Part shown: positions 9,612-41,657 of the stretch, one piece after another | Layout of the letters: every line of letters begins with the position of its first letter | Numbering within the stretch: position 1 is the stretch's first letter | DNA from: Thermoproteota archaeon | Lineage (GTDB): Archaea; Korarchaeota; Korarchaeia; Korarchaeales; Korarchaeaceae | Direction: 5' to 3' | Length of the DNA stretch: 41,657 nucleotides | Assembly: GCA_027491735.1 (NCBI GenBank) | Contig: JAOZGP010000015.1 | Location: 1 to 41,657 of the forward strand | Notes under the pieces: generated by a model | Told to the model about the DNA's origin: nothing | The model's database searches: none | What the model saw: the letters and a program-made list of their open reading frames with translations, nothing else | Made by a program: the position numbers and the translations under genes

Positions 9612-9680
9612 CCTCCTACCGAGGAATTATTCACCACTGTAACGACAAAAAATTAACTATTTCAGGGTTGAGTTAGGGAG

Positions 9681-9754
9681 CGGCGGGGGTGGGACTCGAA
9701 CCCACGACCTTCCGGTTAACAGCCGGACGCTCTACCTAGCTGAGCTACCCCGCC
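9681..9754 (-). tRNA. tRNA-Asn(GTT)
   Basis: Reverse complement: GGCGGGG TA GCTC AGCTAGGTA GAGC G TCCGG CT GTT AA CCGGA AGGTC GTGGG TTCGAGT CCCAC CCCCGCC G. Confidence 0.98.
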
Positions 9755-9940
9755 GTGAAAAACTGCTGTCCTATCCCCTGCAATCCTAAATTTAAGTGTT
9801 TAGTTCGATGAGAAGTGGAGGTAAGATGTTAATTTAAGAAATTGATAAGATTATAAGATTGATTTTTACAGAGTAATGAGAAAAAGCCTAAAGCCTCGGT
9901 GAGGGGATGAATCAGGGAGGCAGGACTTTTCTTTTAGTTT

Positions 9941-10030
9941 TAATCCCTATCATGACTTTCAGGACGGCGTACACACCTGTAAGCTTTTCTCTTTCCAATT
10001 AGTGCATGTTAGGTCTAGTTGGGAAGGTTG
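9941..10030 (+). repeat. Dispersed repeat, copy 1 (homologous to 40813-40896)
   Basis: Core 9949-10030 aligns by eye to 40819-40896 with 12 mismatches in 78 positions plus one 4-nt gap. Confidence 0.9.
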
Positions 10031-10200
10031 TAGCGAATAGTGAGCACATCGAAGCGATGTTCAAGGCTGTAAAGAAGATAGGATGGAGCAGGGAATGGTA
10101 TTGAGGTTGAAGTTGTGAGGAAATACAGGCAGAAATTTAATGGAAATGGCAGGAATGGGAAGAATGCTGAGGCTGTTAAGCAAAATGTGGAGATGACAGC

Positions 10201-10365
10201 ATGAGAAAGATTCTCATCTCTAAAAGTTACATCCTGCTCAGATCAGGAAATCTGGAATTCTTTGTAGGCAGGAGATACTTCAGAATGCTGAGGGCTGCGA
10301 TAGAGGAGACAGAGAAAATGAGGGATGGAACATCAAGAGTAATTGACCTTGAATTTCAGTTTTAA
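10201..10365 (+). CDS. Small hypothetical protein (54 aa, MRKILISKSYILLRSGNLEFFVGRRYF...)
   Basis: Open ATG-to-TAA frame below the ORF-track cutoff with protein-like composition. Family not recognised. Confidence 0.35.
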   Translation: MRKILISKSYILLRSGNLEFFVGRRYFRMLRAAIEETEKMRDGTSRVIDLEFQF

Positions 10366-10376
10366 ATTTTAGCAAT

Positions 10377-10847
10377 TTACAGCTCCAGCGTTTCTTCAAG
10401 TTTTTTACAATCTTTTTTAACATCGTAGCTATCAAATCCCTCTTCTCTCACTTTTTCAATCAGGTAATCGTCAGCTGCAACGAGCTGAGAGTTACAAGTG
10501 CCGACAGCAGATGGATGGAGTCATCCGCAGAAATATGTCTCTCAAGGATTACCCGCCATGAAGCTTGCACGAGCTGTGAAGTAACGGGAACAAGTACAAG
10601 ACTATCTTTCTTTACAAGCTCCATTGTTTTTTCGAGTATGGTTGCAATTACTGTATCTCTTTCATCGGGATTTATTTCACCTCTTCTGCATTTCCTGTCT
10701 ACTGCTGCGATACTCTCACTCAAAGTCCATTGAGATGTAACAACTACAACCTCTCCTATTTCACAAGCTGCAAAAATCTTGGAGATGGTTTCGCTGCCTG
10801 TCTCCTGAGAAAATTCCTCATGCAGAAGTGTCGAGGTAGATCTTCAT
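10377..10847 (-). pseudogene. PIN-domain (VapC-like) toxin pseudogene
   Basis: Starts MKIYLDTSA then TGA. Continues ETGSETI...TSQWTLSE...ISADDSIHLLSAL, then shifts frame to VAADDYLIEKVREEGF...LEL-stop. Two lesions. Confidence 0.85.
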
Positions 10848-10866
10848 CTTTCCCGCATATCCACTA

Positions 10867-11043
10867 CTATTTTTGATAGAGGCTTGCCTTTCTTGAGAAT
10901 TTCCCTCGTTTTTCCAGATCAGCTCTCTTGAAATCTATGCTGAGCCTGTTAGCAAAATCTTCGATCATCGATACAGCTTCCTCTCTGCTCATCGTGCATA
11001 TTCCAGCTCTGAAAAATCTCTCAGCAAGCCTTGAAGTTGCCAT
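10867..11043 (-). CDS. Putative antitoxin partner of the PIN pseudogene
   Basis: Small ORF (MATSRLAERF...) directly upstream of the PIN gene on the same strand. Start may extend to 11103. Assignment is by position only. Confidence 0.45.
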   Translation of the reverse strand: MATSRLAERFFRAGICTMSREEAVSMIEDFANRLSIDFKRADLEKRGKFSRKASLYQK

Positions 11044-11522
11044 AATGGTATCTATCCGATTATGTTTTAAATAGTTTTGCGGGTAAATCTCAGGCTCGAG
11101 CATTTGTTAAGCATTTTGCCATGGTTAAAAAGCAGATGTCTGGAAAAGTATACGGTGTGAGAAACCCAGTTGATTTGTATGAGGATTGAAGAAGTTATGC
11201 TTAAGGCTTTGAAGATACTCGAGAAGGAGTTAACAGCGAAGGGTTTCTTATCTACCTGCAGGCTATTACCAAAAGATCTGGAGACTCTGTTAAAGAGCTC
11301 AGAGAGAAGACAAAGAACCTAAAGTCTGAATAAGGTCGTTGAGATGTCAAAGAAGTTTGAGGGATGATTTCAATTAGAAGATGGAACATCGCCACCCACT
11401 CCCCCCTAAATCCAAAACTCAAGAATGACAACAGTTTTTAATAAGGGATTGAAGATTTATAACAAAAAGCACGGGATGGTGGCGGATGGTAGAAGTTCTC
11501 GATAACTCTCCTGAAAGAAAGG

Positions 11523-13736
11523 TCACAGTAAATAGCCCAGTGTCAGTTTACCCGTGTCCCTCATGACCGTGGCCCTCAGGGTTTTCTTAACCTCCTCGAA
11601 GTACTGGAGTATCTCGTCTGTCAGGCTTGGTTTCACCTCATCGAGAGCCCTCATGAAGTGTCTCATATAAATCTTCTCGGCATCTGGATTCTCTCTCAGA
11701 GAGTTCAACGCTGCCTCTCTAACCAAAGCGGCGAGATCAGCTCCACTGAACCTCTCAGTTCTCATTGCTAGAGTCCGAAGATCCACGTCATCGGCCAGTG
11801 GGATCTTTCGCGTTAAGACCTCGAGTATCTTGTACCGACCATCTTGATCAGGGGGACCGATGTATATCAGCTTCTCCAATCTTCCCGGACGAAGAATTGC
11901 AGGATCAAGAAGATCGGGTCTGTTTGTAGCTCCTATGACTATGACGTTCTTTAGAGGCTGTATCCCGTCTATCTCAGTAAGCATTTGACTAACAACCCTT
12001 TCAGTGACGCCAGAATCACTGTAGTCCATTCCTCTCCTTGGGAAGATTGAATCTATCTCGTCGATGAAGATGACTGCTGGAGCGACCTGCCTAGCCTTCC
12101 TGAAGATTTCTCTAACAGCCTTCTCGCTCTCCCCCACCCATTTACTCATTATCTCCGGACCTTTAACGCTTATGAAGTTTGCCCCGCTCTCGTTGGCGAC
12201 GGCCTTAGCCAGAAGGGTTTTACCACATCCTGGAGGGCCATAGAGGAGTATTCCCTTGGGGGGCTCAATTCCCATCCTTTTTAACTTCTCTGGTTCCCTA
12301 AAGGACAGCTCGACTATCTCCTGAAGCTCTCTCTTTGCTTCCTCAAGTCCACCTATGTCGCTCCACCTTACATCAGGCAGCTCTATGGATATCTCCCTCA
12401 GGGCTGAAGGTTGCACCATCCTGAGGGCCTCCTCAAAATCCTTCCTTGTCACTTTTAGCATCTCCAAAACCTCTAGAGGTATGGTCTCGGCGTCAAGATC
12501 TATCTGGGGGATGAATCTCCTGAGGGCGGACATGGCTGCTTCCCTCACAAGGGCTGCCAGATCCGCTCCCACGAAGCCGTGCGTTATCTCAGCCAGTTCG
12601 ATGAGATCTACGTCTTCTCCCAGGGGTACATTCCTGGTGTGTATCTGTAGGATCTCTCTTCTTCCCTCCTTATCGGGGATCGGAAGTTCTATCTCTCTGT
12701 CAAACCTTCCAGGCCTCCTCAATGCAGGATCAAGGGCTTCTGGCCTGTTAGTCGCCCCTATCACTACGACTTCTCCTCTGGACTTTAGTCCATCCATCAA
12801 AGATAACAGTTGGGCTACCACCCTTCTCTCAACCTCTCCAGTTACCTCGTTCCTGTTAGGTGCTATGGAGTCTATCTCATCAATGAAGATTATACTGGGA
12901 GCGTTTCTCTCAGCCTCATCAAATATTTTTCTCAGCCTCTTCTCGCTCTCCCCGTAGAACTTGCTCATTATCTCCGGACCGTTTATGCTTATGAAGTTTG
13001 CCCCGCTCTCGTTGGCGACGGCCTTAGCCAGAAGGGTTTTACCACATCCTGGAGGGCCATAGAGGAGTATTCCCTTGGGGGGCTCAATTCCCAAGTGCCT
13101 GAACAGCTCCGGCTTCTTGAGAGGTAACTCGACCATCTCTTTTATCCTCTGTATAGCCTCCTTGAGACCGCCTATATCGCTATAGGTGACGCTTGGGACA
13201 GATATCCTCTCGGCATCTACGGGCTGTTCCTGAATCTCCACGGAGGTGTTGCTTGTTATTTTGCCGTAAGCTCTGGGAGAAGCACTAAGAACGACCAAAG
13301 GAATGAACTTCTGAAAGGTTGGTATGTAGACGACATCTCCCTTGGTGACCGGCTGATCCAGAAGCCTGTTCCTCACCCACCTGGCGAAGTCCGATCCGAA
13401 CTTCATTATTTGTCCCTGGGGAGCTAAAACCACGCGGGTTAGCTCAGGCATCTCCTCCTTTTTTATCCTGACATGTTCTCCGGTCTTGACGCCGGCGTTG
13501 CTCCTCAGAATCTTGTCCATCCTTATTATCCTTGTCTTGTAGTCCATGGGTATTGAGGGCATCACCCTAGCCCTCGTGACCCTCGATCCAGTTATTCTTA
13601 TGTAGGAGCCGCTTCTCAGCCCTGCCTCCTTCATGACCTCCGGGTCTATTCTAACGATCCCCCTTCCGAAGTCTGATTGTTTGAGGATGTCCTCGACTAT
13701 CAACACGAACTCCTTGTTCTTGTCCCTGCTTTCCAT
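11523..13736 (-). CDS. cdc48: CDC48/VCP (VAT) family AAA+ ATPase
   Basis: N domain plus two AAA modules ([30 protein letters not shown]), C-terminal ...LGYLL. Confidence 0.97.
12168..12274. repeat. 107-bp perfect direct repeat within cdc48, D2 copy
   Basis: Base-for-base identical to 12987-13093 (offset 819 nt = 273 codons). Confidence 0.95.
12987..13093. repeat. 107-bp perfect direct repeat within cdc48, D1 copy
   Basis: Identical to 12168-12274. Confidence 0.95.
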
Positions 13737-36895: not shown

Positions 36896-37735
36896 TCACT
36901 GCTTTTTTAGCTCGAGATGTATCCTCCCAAAACCTACGGACCTCCCCACTCCTACGCCGCATATCTCTCCGAATCTGAACAAAGTGTTAGCCCAGGCGGC
37001 CATGGAGGAATGGGCCTCCCTCTCCCATCCAGGATGTTCTATTACTTTATAATTTACCCACCCTACAAAGCCCACCACAGACTTGTCAGCTCCCAGAGGA
37101 ATGGGCCTGCTGGTGCACAGCTCATAACCAGTCTCAACTATGCTAAGAGCTGCCCATGTGGAAATTATCTTCGGACGAGGACATTTTACGGGAGATCTAA
37201 GGTTCCAAAGAGCCGATAGAGAGAACAGTATCTTTCTAGGGCTCGGGTATAGATCGCAATACACCGTCGATGCTTTTCTCAGGCAAGTGGGAGTCAGAAA
37301 CTTTATCCTGAATGAGTGCAGTGGCTCTTTTGTTATCAGGGAGTCATAGGTGTGCTCGCTCCAGAAGGCATCTTTCACCTCCAACGATATTTCCCCAAGC
37401 CTTATAATGGGCTTCTTCAGCAGCCATACTCTCAGAGGGTTGAGGAGGTTGCTGTTAAAGAGGACAACACCAGCCTCCAGAGAGTCTCCGGTGTTCACCT
37501 GAAACTCCTGTGTTCCACACCAAGCCTTCCACGGAACGGGAGGTATTGGGGGGTTAACTACGATCTCGCTGGAGTAGCTGCTGTCCAGGATTCTGGACGC
37601 CATCGGATCCGTGGACCTTATGGCCCTCTTGAAGGTGGACAGGAGCTCGCTTCCTGCTAACCCCAGCTCCCCGTCCTCCCTACAGGTCATGTTGATATCC
37701 AATCGATAGAGCTTGTGTTCCTCCTCATTCTCCAT
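36896..37735 (-). CDS. cas6: CRISPR-associated endoribonuclease Cas6 (stand-alone)
   Basis: IKFLTPT, YPSP..I..SL...WN, GFVGWV.Y and the C-terminal G-rich loop GVGVGRSVGFG. Confidence 0.88.
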   Translation of the reverse strand: MENEEEHKLYRLDINMTCREDGELGLAGSELLSTFKRAIRSTDPMASRILDSSYSSEIVVNPPIPPVPWKAWCGTQEFQVNTGDSLEAGVVLFNSNLLNPLRVWLLKKPIIRLGEISLEVKDAFWSEHTYDSLITKEPLHSFRIKFLTPTCLRKASTVYCDLYPSPRKILFSLSALWNLRSPVKCPRPKIISTWAALSIVETGYELCTSRPIPLGADKSVVGFVGWVNYKVIEHPGWEREAHSSMAAWANTLFRFGEICGVGVGRSVGFGRIHLELKKQ

Positions 37736-38549: not shown

Positions 38550-39578
38550 TCAGGATACTGACCTCCAGTTCAATCTCAGCTCATCGGCATAACCTCTGGC
38601 GACGAGAACTTCCTGGAGTGAGATCCTCCTCCCGAGTATGGGGTGCTTGTGGGCCTTGTACTCCGGTCTGTACTGTCCCATGACGTTGACCAACGTGTTC
38701 GGGATGTTCTCCCTGATCCATCTGAGAATAGGCATTGTACAGCACTCGAGATGACCCGGAAGAACCAGGTGCCTGATGATAATCTCACCTCCGAGCTCGT
38801 ATATTTTCCTCAAGTTTCTTGTGAGGATCTCCCTGTAATTTCTCGCCCTGCTGAGCTCCATGGCATGAGCATCATCCCAGTATTTAAAATCGGGCAACCA
38901 GAGGTCCACGACCCCCACGAGGAGCTCAAGGGTCTCTGGCGTCAGGTACAGATTTGAGTTCCATATGATGGGAAGATTTCCTGTATACACCCTGAGTGCC
39001 CCAAGTATCGTGTGGATGTTCGGCGTGGGATCCCCTCCCACCAGGTTTATGTTTATTGCTCCCCTTCTCTCCAGCTCGAGCATTATGGATGCCAGCTCGC
39101 GAGGCCCAACGCTGGCCCCTGATCCAGGGTTTCTGGAGATATCCCAGTTTTGACAATATATGCAGTGGAAATTGCACCCTGAGAAGAAGATAGTCCCCGA
39201 CGGAACAAGGGGCGGTTCCTCGCCGAGATGGAGAAAGGCGCTCGCTACTCTCGATGTATAACCCACTCCACAGACCCCTGTAGATGTTCTTCTATTAACT
39301 GCGCAGTTCATCTCACAGAACTTACAGCTCTCAACGAGCTTCTCAGCTATTTTATGCTTTAAGTCAAGAAGAGAGAATTTAGGGGTCTCCTTGAGGATTC
39401 TTCGGTGCTCGCCCTTTCTTACAAGCTCAAGAAGCTCAATTGTCCTCTCCAAATTTTCCTCTCGAGGATCGCTCTCCTCAGATGAGGGCATATGCTTTGC
39501 GACGACAAATAAGGGGATTTCCTCGCCACGTGCTACTTTGAGATACCTCCTTATAAGATCTAGTTCCTCGGAGCTCAT
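38550..39578 (-). CDS. Radical SAM protein, PflX-like
   Basis: C.FCEMNC.VNR, HLGEEPPLVPSGTIFFSGCNFHCIYCQN, DFKY, RHLVLPGH and MGQYRP. Start placed at MSSEELD (39578). Confidence 0.9.
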   Translation of the reverse strand: MSSEELDLIRRYLKVARGEEIPLFVVAKHMPSSEESDPREENLERTIELLELVRKGEHRRILKETPKFSLLDLKHKIAEKLVESCKFCEMNCAVNRRTSTGVCGVGYTSRVASAFLHLGEEPPLVPSGTIFFSGCNFHCIYCQNWDISRNPGSGASVGPRELASIMLELERRGAININLVGGDPTPNIHTILGALRVYTGNLPIIWNSNLYLTPETLELLVGVVDLWLPDFKYWDDAHAMELSRARNYREILTRNLRKIYELGGEIIIRHLVLPGHLECCTMPILRWIRENIPNTLVNVMGQYRPEYKAHKHPILGRRISLQEVLVARGYADELRLNWRSVS

Positions 39579-39590
39579 GTTGGAGACCCT

Positions 39591-39733
39591 TGGGGGCCGC
39601 TGCAACCACCGCGCTCGAAGGAGGCATGACAGCCGAGGCGGGGTCCAATACTTGACCCCTCTCCTTCCCCCTCGAGGGGCACTAGCCTCCCCTGACCTTT
39701 GCGGGGAGGATGTCCCCTGGGCAGCGGCCCCCA
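39591..39733 (-). ncRNA. Unidentified GC-rich multi-branched structured RNA candidate
   Basis: 13-bp perfect terminal stem TGGGGGCCGCTGC/GCAGCGGCCCCCA enclosing further helices GAAGGAG/CTCCTTC, GGGGTC/GACCCC, CCTCCCC/GGGGAGG and AGGGG/CCCCT. AT-rich TATA-like tract at 39752-39766. Strand tentative. Confidence 0.65.
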
Positions 39734-39832
39734 TAGATAAGGGAGGATGAGAAATTAAAGTTTTATCGATGATGGCTGACCAGGTTAAGGTTAATTCGAT
39801 CCAACACACAACTGTTGTTCAGGAGGTAAGCC

Positions 39833-40684
39833 TTGATGAGGCTTGATAGAACTCGCTTCGGACCGGCTGGTTTTCCCATAGATGCAGGCCGTGATGAGGC
39901 CTTCAGATATCTGAACAGCATAGGTCTAGATGGAATGGAATATCAGGCCGTCAGAAGAGTTCCCACCAACGAGAAGGTCCTCAGATCCATCAAAGAAGAG
40001 GCAGAGAGGTACGACGTGCTTCTCACCGTACACGCTCCCTACGCGATAAACTTGGCTGCAGAAACGGAAGAGAAGAGGAAAGCCAGCATCATGAGGATAG
40101 TTGCAGCTGCAGAAGCAGCTCACAAGATGGGGGCCCTTCACGTCACGTTTCATCCCGGATATTACCTGAAAAGAAGTCCTGAAGGGGCTCTAAGAATCGC
40201 AATAGACTCATTGAGAGAGGTCATCAGAGAGATGAAATCTAGAGGGCTCAATCATATAGAGCTGGGTCCCGAAACTACGGGAAAGCCTAATCAGCTTGGA
40301 TCTCTCGAGGAGGTCATAACGATGGCGGAGGAGCTGGACAACGTTCTACCCACAGTAGATTTCGCGCACATCCACGTGAGGGAAAAGGAAGGACGGATAA
40401 GATGTAAGGAGGATTATCGTAGAATAGTCGAGATCATTGAGAGAAGACTCGGAAGCGCTGATGGTCTCGTTATACACTTCACCGAGGTTGAGGCTACCTC
40501 AAAAGGATACGGTGAGAGAAGGCACCATGAGCTCGGATCGGGATATGGACCGAATTTCGAGCCGCTGGCTGAAGTGATGGTTGAGCTGGGAGTCAAGTGG
40601 TTTGTGGTCTCAGAAAGCCCTATCTTGGAGAGGGACTCCATCAAGATGAGGGATATGTACAGGAGAAAGCTCTCAAAGATGTGA
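39833..40684 (+). CDS. nfo: Endonuclease IV (AP endonuclease family 2)
   Basis: FGPAG, HAPYAINL, FHPGYY, ETTGK..QLGS, DFAH, HFT, HH and ESP. Confidence 0.92.
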   Translation: MMRLDRTRFGPAGFPIDAGRDEAFRYLNSIGLDGMEYQAVRRVPTNEKVLRSIKEEAERYDVLLTVHAPYAINLAAETEEKRKASIMRIVAAAEAAHKMGALHVTFHPGYYLKRSPEGALRIAIDSLREVIREMKSRGLNHIELGPETTGKPNQLGSLEEVITMAEELDNVLPTVDFAHIHVREKEGRIRCKEDYRRIVEIIERRLGSADGLVIHFTEVEATSKGYGERRHHELGSGYGPNFEPLAEVMVELGVKWFVVSESPILERDSIKMRDMYRRKLSKM

Positions 40685-40723
40685 AGAAAGTTTTATATCT
40701 TCCTGAATCTAGGAAAGCGGGAA

Positions 40724-40797
40724 GCCCGGGTGGTGTAGCCCGGCTAGCATAGAGGCCTGTCGAGCCTCAGACCCGGGTTCAAATCCCGGCCCGGGCG
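40724..40797 (+). tRNA. tRNA-Asp(GTC)
   Basis: GCCCGGG/CCCGGGC acceptor plus G73, GAGGC CT GTC GA GCCTC anticodon arm, CCGGG TTCAAAT CCCGG. BRE/TATA AAGAAAG TTTTATAT at 40684-40698. Confidence 0.98.
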
Positions 40798-40812
40798 CTT
40801 TTATTTCTATTC

Positions 40813-40896
40813 TAATCCATCATGGCTTTCAGAGTGGCGTATACACCTATAAGCTTTTCTCCAATTGATTCATGTTGGGTCTGATTGGGAAGGTTG
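40813..40896 (+). repeat. Dispersed repeat, copy 2 (homologous to 9941-10030)
   Basis: See copy 1. Begins about 15 nt after the 3' end of tRNA-Asp. Confidence 0.9.
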
Positions 40897-41038
40897 CTGT
40901 AAAGGAAATCAGGCAGATGGAGAGACTTCAGGAATGGCTTGACAGCCTTCCTGAAATTGCAAGGGAAAAAGAATCAGCGAATGTCCTGGCTTTCGTCTTT
41001 TTTGTTGAGTTGCTCTGGATGGAATCACAGATTCAATA

Positions 41039-41260
41039 TTGATGGTTTTGCCAGTTTTATATAGAATTTTTGAAATGAAATCTGCTTACATAAGATGTGT
41101 GGTTTTCTTTTCTGTAATGTTTATAGCCAGTTATTTGATTGGATGCCATCTACAAATATACAAATTCAAGCCAGAAGATTTAATTTATTGGTATGTCATG
41201 GCTGTGATTGTAGGGAGTATGATATATCATCTTGAAAGGAAAGAGAGGAGAAAATTTTAA
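41039..41260 (+). CDS. Small AT-rich membrane protein
   Basis: Two hydrophobic helices and a basic tail. Start may be the ATG near 41075. Confidence 0.5.
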   Translation: MMVLPVLYRIFEMKSAYIRCVVFFSVMFIASYLIGCHLQIYKFKPEDLIYWYVMAVIVGSMIYHLERKERRKF

Positions 41261-41271
41261 CCGATGAGAAA

Positions 41272-41450
41272 ATGAACAAAACATTTAATTGTAAAAACAT
41301 TCTTGCTCTTGGTATATTAAGCACATTTCTTGGTGCTTTCCTTACTTTTACTATCACAGACAGCATACTAATGGTTCTTGGAGTTTTGGCTGGTAAAATT
41401 TTAAGCAGAAGGGTAATGAAAATGACATCGCACCGCCCGATTACGCCTAA
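41272..41450 (+). pseudogene. Small membrane protein ORF or remnant running into the attC-like site
   Basis: Hydrophobic first ~50 codons. The open frame continues through the attC hairpin to 41574 with non-protein-like sequence. Confidence 0.35.
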
Positions 41451-41532
41451 CAGGTGCATATCCGACTTCGCTAACGCTTCGTCCAAATTCCTCGCTACAC
41501 TCGGAACTTCGGATATGCCCAAAACGTTATCG
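41445..41532 (+). mobile_element. Integron attC-like recombination site
   Basis: R'' GCCTAAC (41445-51, fits RYYYAAC), inner inverted repeat GCATATCCGA (41456-65)/TCGGATATGC (41509-18), CTTCG-rich central region, R' GTTATCG (41526-32, GTT core). Confidence 0.72.
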
Positions 41533-41561
41533 GAAATCGCCCGGAATAGGAGGGAAGAAAC

Positions 41562-41657
41562 ATGTTTAAGCTGAGATTTTATCGTGGCAATACGGAATAT
41601 CAAAAAGAGAAAAATGAGAGAGTTTTGGAATTGCTTGAAGAAATCAAGAGAAAACAT
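41562..41657 (+). CDS. 5' end of a putative next-cassette ORF (MFKLRFYRGNTEYQKEK..., runs off the window)
   Basis: SD AGGAGG at 41548-53 and ATG 36 nt after the G of the attC GTT. Confidence 0.55.
   Translation, partial: MFKLRFYRGNTEYQKEKNERVLELLEEIKRKH

Follow-up and report, generated by a model that had tools for sequence, protein, structure and literature searches.

Is the palindromic element near the right end of contig JAOZGP010000015.1, from a Thermoproteota archaeon (Korarchaeaceae), an attachment site of integron gene cassettes, and does a cassette array stand at this locus? The window analysed here is the entire contig (G000:C34, 41,657 nt) of an assembly of 41 contigs and 1.357 Mb that is 87.85% complete. 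The element is an 88-nt imperfect palindrome, GCCTAAC...GTTATCG (41445-41532), which a first-pass annotation had read as an attC site at the edge of a cassette array, either an integron or a CALIN (cluster of attC sites lacking integron-integrases). The element is probably an integron-type attC that marks a cassette junction, since the repeat family to which it belongs shows arrays, a covarying fold, offset complementarity between successive copies and natural recombinants. A cassette array at this position is unproven, and under the customary definitions the locus qualifies neither as a complete integron nor as a CALIN.

The end motifs, the inner repeat of 10 bp, the Shine-Dalgarno sequence, the ATG and the AT-rich open reading frames (ORFs) all read as first described. 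The perfect 10-nt inverted repeat is formed by GCATATCCGA (41456-41465) and TCGGATATGC (41509-41518), with 43 nt between the arms. The parts of the element are as follows:

41445-41451, + strand: R'' box GCCTAAC, matching RYYYAAC at 7/7 positions
41453-41465, + strand: 5' arm of the L stem, composed of GG, an unpaired T (41455) and GCATATCCGA (inverted-repeat search, folding)
41466-41508, + strand: variable terminal structure, a three-way junction (alignment, covariation of helices 3-5)
41470-41477, + strand: hairpin 1 of the tip, GC-TAAC-GC (alignment, covariation)
41480-41487, + strand: conserved CGTCCAAA within the tip (alignment of copies)
41488-41506, + strand: hairpin 2 of the tip, TTCC...GGAA (alignment, covariation)
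41509-41520, + strand: 3' arm of the L stem, TCGGATATGCCC (inverted repeat, alignment, covariation)
41521-41525, + strand: unpaired spacer AAAAC (alignment, covariation)
41526-41532, + strand: R' box GTTATCG, which fits the consensus only at GTTA, the departure from RRRY already remarked in the first-pass annotation
41533-41537, + strand: GAAAT, which lengthens the outer stem and is present just after R' in most copies of the family (flank listing)

Taken alone, the palindrome is within chance expectation. The window has 11 perfect inverted pairs of 10-mers whose loop does not exceed 150 nt, versus 4-8 in five shuffles, and the single-strand DNA fold has z-scores of -2.0 (+ strand) and -1.8 (- strand), with 7 and 12 of 200 shuffles, respectively, folding equally well. 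Homology, not the palindrome itself, is what makes the element significant. BLAST with the window as query recovers a copy of 80% identity (E 8.1e-14) in G009:C12, a genome of the same taxonomic family and another genus, and a partial match in G032:C38, which belongs to another family outside the phylum of the window and within the same domain. A profile hidden Markov model of 30 copies, from which the window row is excluded, matches 41446-41530 at E 3.9e-16 (54 bits); the second-best match in the window has E 7. A covariance model built from the family (R1, filters off) gives the element 75 bits (its own row being in the model), and the next best match in the window has 11 bits.

Copies of the family are dispersed among archaea and bacteria. 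A scan of one genome per species with a degenerate 18-mer from the conserved core returned 120 loci, of which 26 have full-length copies (nhmmer) and the other 94 match just around the 18-mer, as by chance. In metagenomes, the exact 18-mer returned 58 loci, in which a covariance model finds 68 copies. Both scans favour copies that keep the core and would overlook attC sites of other types within these arrays. By record title, the carriers are mostly metagenome-assembled genomes (MAGs) of archaea and include: (i) Methanophagales, Methanolliviera, Thermoplasmata/Thermoplasmatales, Methanobacteriota, Halobacteria and DHVE2, (ii) Archaeoglobaceae, Methanomicrobiales, Methanosarcinales, Aenigmarchaeota and Nitrososphaerota, and (iii) some anaerobic bacteria, of the Thermodesulfovibrionales, Dehalococcoidia, Halanaerobiales and WOR-3. 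The attC family is common to archaeal and bacterial MAGs. Within the class of the window, copies occur in 5 of 40 genomes (one in the source genome, four each in G009 and G005, two in G012 and one in G014), many of them at contig ends, and none is found in the three other genomes of the same genus. A genome of the same taxonomic family is recorded under the title Nitrososphaerota, a TACK group (Thaumarchaeota, Aigarchaeota, Crenarchaeota and Korarchaeota), in line with the TACK-like host that had been proposed from the letters of the window.

In contigs from four unrelated vent and sediment sequencing runs, coverage of the window is limited to the tRNA and to ~41444-41448 through 41529-41537, and the unmatched parts set in at R'' and R'. 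As the homology stops at these two boxes, the same site occupies other contexts elsewhere. None of the public runs contains more than 6% of the sampled words of the window, and the source sample was not found among them.

The family shares a folded structure, which is defined by a structure alignment (A2) of 31 full copies. The plan from 5' to 3' is xxxTAAC, one unpaired A, a stem of 11-13 bp, a three-way junction, the return arm, an unpaired spacer resembling AAAAC, GTTAxxx and, usually, GAAAT. In the three-way junction, a first hairpin, small and variable, is followed by the conserved CTTCGCCCAAA and then by another hairpin, whose stem covaries (TTTGC/GCAAA, TTCC/GGAA, CCAGCC/GGCTGG). Among the 31 copies, 85.5% of the cells of the specified structure are paired compared to 70.1% in shuffles, compensatory change is observed in 21/26 pairs, and not one of 500 shuffles attains the observed value of any measure. 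When the partners are slid by 1-3 columns, the pairing falls to 18-47%. Helix 2 (the L stem) is 85.9% paired with compensatory change in 9/11 pairs, while the tip helices 3-5 are 88-98% paired. The internal loop is asymmetric, 1 x 5 (A versus AAAAC), with the polarity of the aadA1 attC. An extra base stands in the L'' column of 10/31 copies; in the window, this base (T41455) is A, not G, on the bottom strand. The AA of R'' is invariant and its C is retained in 28/31 copies, while GTT of R' is retained in 27/31. By contrast, the three outermost pairs (xxx/xxx) are formed in only 22, 15 and 15 of the 31 copies, and the last three bases of R' are variable. The latter is the expectation of the crossover model of attC sites, because these bases track the next copy.

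This tracking is measured in arrays, where same-strand copies lie 160-3,400 nt apart, separated by a single ORF or a few of them in the same orientation, with up to five copies per contig. G005:C31, for example, has two copies 285 nt apart, and arrays are also present in L035, L060, L185 and L213. The longest ORF is co-oriented with the strand that reads xxxTAAC...GTTAxxx in all 15 inter-copy segments, and in most of these segments an ATG is positioned 32-87 nt from the start of R' (36 nt for the ATG of the window). Among 15 pairs of neighbouring copies (11 genome loci), the R' triplet is complementary to the R'' of the next copy at 35 of 45 positions, with nine pairs perfect, compared to 22/45 for the R'' of the same copy and a permutation mean of 19.5 (standard deviation 3.5; 0 of 20,000 permutations reach 35). 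The result is replicated in 29 new metagenome pairs, which agree with the next copy at 70/87 positions (19 pairs perfect) versus 45/87 with their own R'' (permutation mean 35.5, standard deviation 4.8; 0 of 20,000). The first-pass annotation had explained the poor pairing of GCCTAAC with GTTATCG by bases brought in by the next cassette and had predicted that the next R'' would resemble CGATAAC; the tracking bears out the explanation, and the arrays L185 and L203, in which the R' GTTATCG is followed by the R'' CGATAAC, bear out the prediction elsewhere than in the window.

Natural recombinants point to the same position. L127 and L233 have in common 114 nt of an upstream ORF and the entire attC body and split right after GTTA. 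L205 and L214 have a common downstream cassette from GTTATAC, with different attC bodies in front of it, and L116/L035 diverge from L184 at the 3' spacer/R'. Crossover at G/TTA of R' is, to judge from these comparisons, a property of the family, which would extend to the window copy.

The cassettes of the family carry content that is typical of integrons. In G032, a HicA toxin and its partner are encoded in the segment that separates a strong copy from a weak one, and other cassettes encode TIR (CAP12/Pycsar), PycTM effectors, GmrSD, polysaccharide deacetylase, domains of unknown function and small membrane peptides. In a Methanophagales array (L035:3328-4834), adjacent cassettes encode a TIR (CAP12/Pycsar) protein and a PycTM effector-like protein, an instance of anti-phage defence as archaeal cassettes. 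The island at L011:10821-12829 (G032:C38) is flanked by genes for a Bud32-like kinase and a Sua5/TsaC-like protein and is composed of a gene for a ParA-like ATPase, an ORF of 172 aa, attC, a HicB-like gene, a HicA gene and a second, weak attC-like match.

Archaeal integrons and CALINs, including those of Thermoproteota, were described in 2022 (Ghaly et al. 2022, Sci Adv, PMC9668308), in keeping with the first-pass remark that integrons had only recently been reported in archaea. On the assignment favoured here, the window site is a further example of archaeal attC, a kind known since that year. As in the published cases, the carriers are archaeal MAGs that include Thermoproteota, the sites are mostly clusters of attC without the integron integrase (IntI), the attC types are common to Archaea and Bacteria, and the cassettes are described as rich in toxin-antitoxin systems, defence functions and small membrane or secreted proteins. 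Unlike those cases, which as described require at least two attC sites within 4 kb and leave out singletons, the window has one site. A literature search on integrons and attC in ANME-1 (anaerobic methanotrophic archaea) listed nothing on this attC family.

Singleton attC sites are termed SALINs (single attC sites lacking integron-integrases) in IntegronFinder 2 usage. The window resembles a SALIN in having one attC-like site, no integrase and no second site assembled, but the site is only 125 nt from the contig end, a point overlooked in the first-pass annotation, and the singleness may be an artefact of assembly.

The attC of aadA1 (class 1 integron In2 of plasmid R100), read from the annotated record as GTCTAAC-AATTC-GTTCAAGC...GCTTAAC-TCAAGC-GTTAGAT, provides a bacterial reference. 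Similarly to this site, the family has a RYYYAAC 5' end, a GTT... 3' end, nested R and L repeats around a variable tip and a 3' spacer that is longer than the 5' spacer. The length is inside the range known for integron attC sites, the site is 3' of its ORF, with a short leader separating it from the ORF that follows, and the crossover is of the G/TT type with the bases after GTT derived from the next cassette. By contrast, the family has no constant extra base in L'', its tip is a three-way junction conserved in sequence across phyla, and the outer stem is extended by the GAAAT after R' and by complementarity (flanks judged by eye) of a cassette's end to the beginning of the cassette that follows. 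No IntI is encoded nearby, again unlike aadA1.

Several observations weigh against an integron-type attC at this locus. One copy only is found in the window (covariance model, filters off) and in the 87.85%-complete genome (blastn, nhmmer and covariance model), including C21:1-4000, where the covariance model has no match. The first-pass expectations of an array edge and of more copies downstream are, thus, not borne out in the remaining 125 nt or elsewhere in the genome. The spacing that defines a CALIN (two or more attC sites separated by less than 4 kb) is found in relatives and not here, where the contig stops 125 nt later, and an intI gene with attI beside cassettes, as in a complete integron, was not found in the source genome at its 87.85% completeness. 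The presumed upstream cassette has no recognisable left boundary: neither TTAGG nor GTTAGGC occurs between 40799 and 41445, and the only candidates, GTTGGGT (40874) and GTTGAGT (41004), are about the number expected by chance. In the fold, the canonical pattern of extrahelical G/T is not evident, the loop sequence is unusually conserved across phyla, and the spacers are 5 versus 9 nt and partly paired, unlike the 5 versus 6 nt of aadA1. One of the four natural junctions (the other three being at GTTA of R') is at R'': L191/L213 and L205/L214 have the same attC body and downstream gene with different upstream ORFs, and the switch occurs between the R'' triplet and TAAC. This junction fits two cassettes that share one attC body or an exchange on the other strand.

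The integrase searches add to these points. No IntI was found in the assembled source genome, in the window or elsewhere; its sole tyrosine recombinase (PF00589, on C27) scores 44.8 bits versus the TIGR02249 cut-off of 265. IntI above this cut-off is found in 1 of 20 carrier genomes, G044, a Thermodesulfovibrionales MAG, where the gene is at a contig end and the covariance model, run on this part of the contig, detects no copy of the family; the same model on six IntI-bearing contig stretches reveals no linkage to family copies. Searches with tblastn of all loci, using IntI1 of R100 and the G044 IntI as queries, detect no IntI with the extra domain beside any copy; the IntI with the I2 insertion that the first-pass annotation had anticipated is, thus, missing from the source genome and from the vicinity of every family copy examined. 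L194 encodes a recombinase of 345 aa on the same strand ~600 nt upstream of a copy, which is without the IntI-specific insert and is C-terminally broken. The candidate recombinase loci L178, L179, L180, L138 and L141 do not overlap with attC loci. In the same-family carriers G005, G012 and G014, recombinases of 282-293 aa match the IntI model in two pieces that skip positions 180-226, presumably the place of the IntI-specific domain.

These data leave some room for a site with attC architecture that is served by a tyrosine recombinase other than IntI (e.g., Xer-like) or that recombines on both strands, as part of a distinct and mainly archaeal cassette system. The window copy would then be the footprint of such a system in a TACK archaeon. 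The lack of IntI beside any copy in the loci examined, its presence in only one of the 20 carrier genomes, the recombinases of G005, G012 and G014, the L194 recombinase without the extra domain, the natural junction at R'', the geometry of the spacers and the extension by the conserved GAAAT all speak for this alternative. Nonetheless, it is considered unlikely. Scarcity of IntI is already normal in archaeal assemblies, with six IntI in 75 genomes and mostly CALINs (PMC9668308), and the loci examined span at most 15 kb. The Xer-like genes, probably housekeeping XerA, show no linkage to the copies, and the R'' junction is also explicable by two cassettes with one common attC body. Moreover, IntI1 is reported to recombine eight of the nine archaeal attC sites assayed (PMC9668308).

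As a separate observation, an open frame in the relative G009:C12 (L009:15790-16101), ~150 nt downstream of an attC copy, ends in ...HEIRIHSLRK... and resembles the HxLR region of tyrosine recombinases, with no Pfam match at E ≤0.01.

A structured RNA (a 3'-UTR, that is, untranslated region, element, a terminator or a small RNA) that travels with genes and is no DNA recombination site would produce the same covariation as single-stranded DNA. The co-orientation of the copies with their flanking ORFs (15/15) and the loop motifs such as CTTCGCCCAAA that are kept across phyla would also suit an RNA. However, an Rfam scan of 40600-41657 with E up to 10 detects the tRNA only and no family on the element. 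The offset complementarity of successive copies, the switching of partners exactly at GTTA| and the homology that ends exactly at R'' and R' in unrelated metagenomes are not predicted for an RNA, which is accordingly regarded as very improbable. Least probable of all is a palindromic repeat that inserts on its own, of the miniature inverted-repeat transposable element (MITE) or repetitive extragenic palindrome (REP) kind, as the size, the terminal inverted repeats, the many short metagenome contigs that end at the element and the partly complementary window flanks CCGCCCGATTAC and GAAATCGCCCGG, both with CGCCCG, are offset by terminal triplets that pair with the neighbour copy (35/45, 70/87) and not within the element (22/45, 45/87), by strict co-orientation in arrays with ORFs between the copies, by the single copy in the source genome and by the absence of any consistent target duplication, the trait by which the first-pass annotation would have recognised such elements.

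An integron-type attC is the most probable reading of the element, and the surroundings of the window copy can be described on this basis:

40724-40798, + strand: tRNA-Asp (GTC), the left edge of the insertion (ARAGORN; Rfam tRNA, 60.5 bits)
40799-40896, + strand: segment of ~100 nt with a second copy at 9927-10030 of 78% identity (blastn)
40807-41657, + strand: assembled left part of the insertion (synteny, G+C)
40872-41042, + strand: small ORF of 56 aa (ORF list)
41039-41260, + strand: small AT-rich ORF for a hydrophobic peptide of 73 aa (ORF list)
from 41272, + strand: small AT-rich ORF for a hydrophobic peptide, its frame open across attC to 41574 (ORF list)
41549-41553, + strand: GGAGG, followed by an ATG at 41562 whose frame runs off the contig after 32 codons

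The ORFs at 41039-41260 and from 41272 onward are presumed to be the content of the cassette that ends in attC, while 41549-41657 would belong to the beginning of the gene of the next cassette. The four local ORFs match no Pfam family below E 0.05, and the only homologue that tblastn recovers for them, in all retrieved loci and in the source genome, is the translated attC itself. The frame at 41272-41574 was considered as a conserved peptide and dropped, the copies carrying frame-shifting indels.

The first-pass annotation had placed the element in a tRNA-Asp island, and synteny reveals an insertion at this position. Homology with relatives stops 8 nt beyond the 3' end of tRNA-Asp, with the synteny break at 40806, and the G+C content drops from ~0.5 to 0.30 after the tRNA (G+C profile). 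G001:C134, of the same genus, matches the window at 38560-40806 and continues after ~116 nt with a homologue of G000:C21:1164-2546. The same adjacency is present in G002, G003 and G009, so that four relatives are without the insertion. Because the flanks adjoin in these four relatives, an insertion 3' of tRNA-Asp is deduced that is composed of 40807-41657, an unassembled gap and C21 from position 1 to ~1163. The minus strand at the head of C21 has a decayed gene of the Orc1/Cdc6-like type (Cdc6_C, 30.8 bits) followed by a fragment of a family-B DNA polymerase (24.3 bits) that runs off the contig, which suggests the remains of a decayed integrated mobile element. In G000:C21:1-844 (L169), an LDEID box is discerned at 602-844 together with the Cdc6_C winged helix, and the DNA polymerase B fragment that follows has the motif YGDTDS.

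The start of the insertion 8 nt past tRNA-Asp, its low G+C content and the Orc1/Cdc6 and PolB fragments at its far end are shared with tRNA-linked integrated elements of Archaea. Unlike such elements, no integrase is encoded in the assembled part of the insertion, no direct repeat of the tRNA-Asp 3' end is found at its far side in the assembled sequence, and the attC family is otherwise not tied to tRNA genes.

A mechanism can be proposed in which the window copy came within a foreign insertion 3' of tRNA-Asp, after having been made and moved by a tyrosine recombinase of the integron-integrase type acting on the folded strand. The single strand would fold, as the alignment indicates for the family, into the R stem TAAC/GTTA, the 1 x 5 asymmetric loop, the long L stem and the three-way-junction tip, and cassettes would be exchanged at G/TTA of R', as the family arrays and recombinants suggest. 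In the window, this would place the crossover between G41526 and T41527, with the upstream cassette carrying the small AT-rich ORFs for membrane peptides and the next cassette starting from T41527 (TTATCG), with its ATG at 41562 and its gene cut by the contig end. As no integrase is encoded in the assembled genome, the site may now be a relic, or may be usable only with a recombinase acting in trans.

For the source genome, the biological consequence is small, amounting to two orphan mini-genes and a truncated third. The locus adds a TACK-lineage example to the short list of archaeal genomes with integron cassettes, with small arrays in a sister genus, and places a probable cassette junction inside a tRNA-linked insertion. 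The more useful by-product is the complementarity to the next copy, which, together with the natural recombinants, provides evidence from sequence only, with no integrase in view, for cassette exchange at G/TTA.

Further features of the contig are of minor relevance to the element. The ~100-nt direct repeat (40799-40896 and 9927-10030, 78% identity) extends in each copy into an ORF that starts MLGL(I/V)GKV, which at the tRNA-Asp copy is the start of the 56-aa ORF with its ATG at 40872. The repeat is present in two copies in the source genome and in 0 of 25 relatives, and both copies are near the left end of genome-specific insertions. The second of these insertions (9806-11526, ~1.7 kb) lies between tRNA-Asn (9680-9754, - strand) and a gene for a CDC48-like ATPase, flanks that are 62 nt apart in G001:C65, and holds the repeat and small ORFs at 10460-10723 and 10867-11103 (- strand). 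Elsewhere, an ORF of 279 aa (36896-37735, - strand) has a Cas6/RAMP-type look, a mere impression from its translation.

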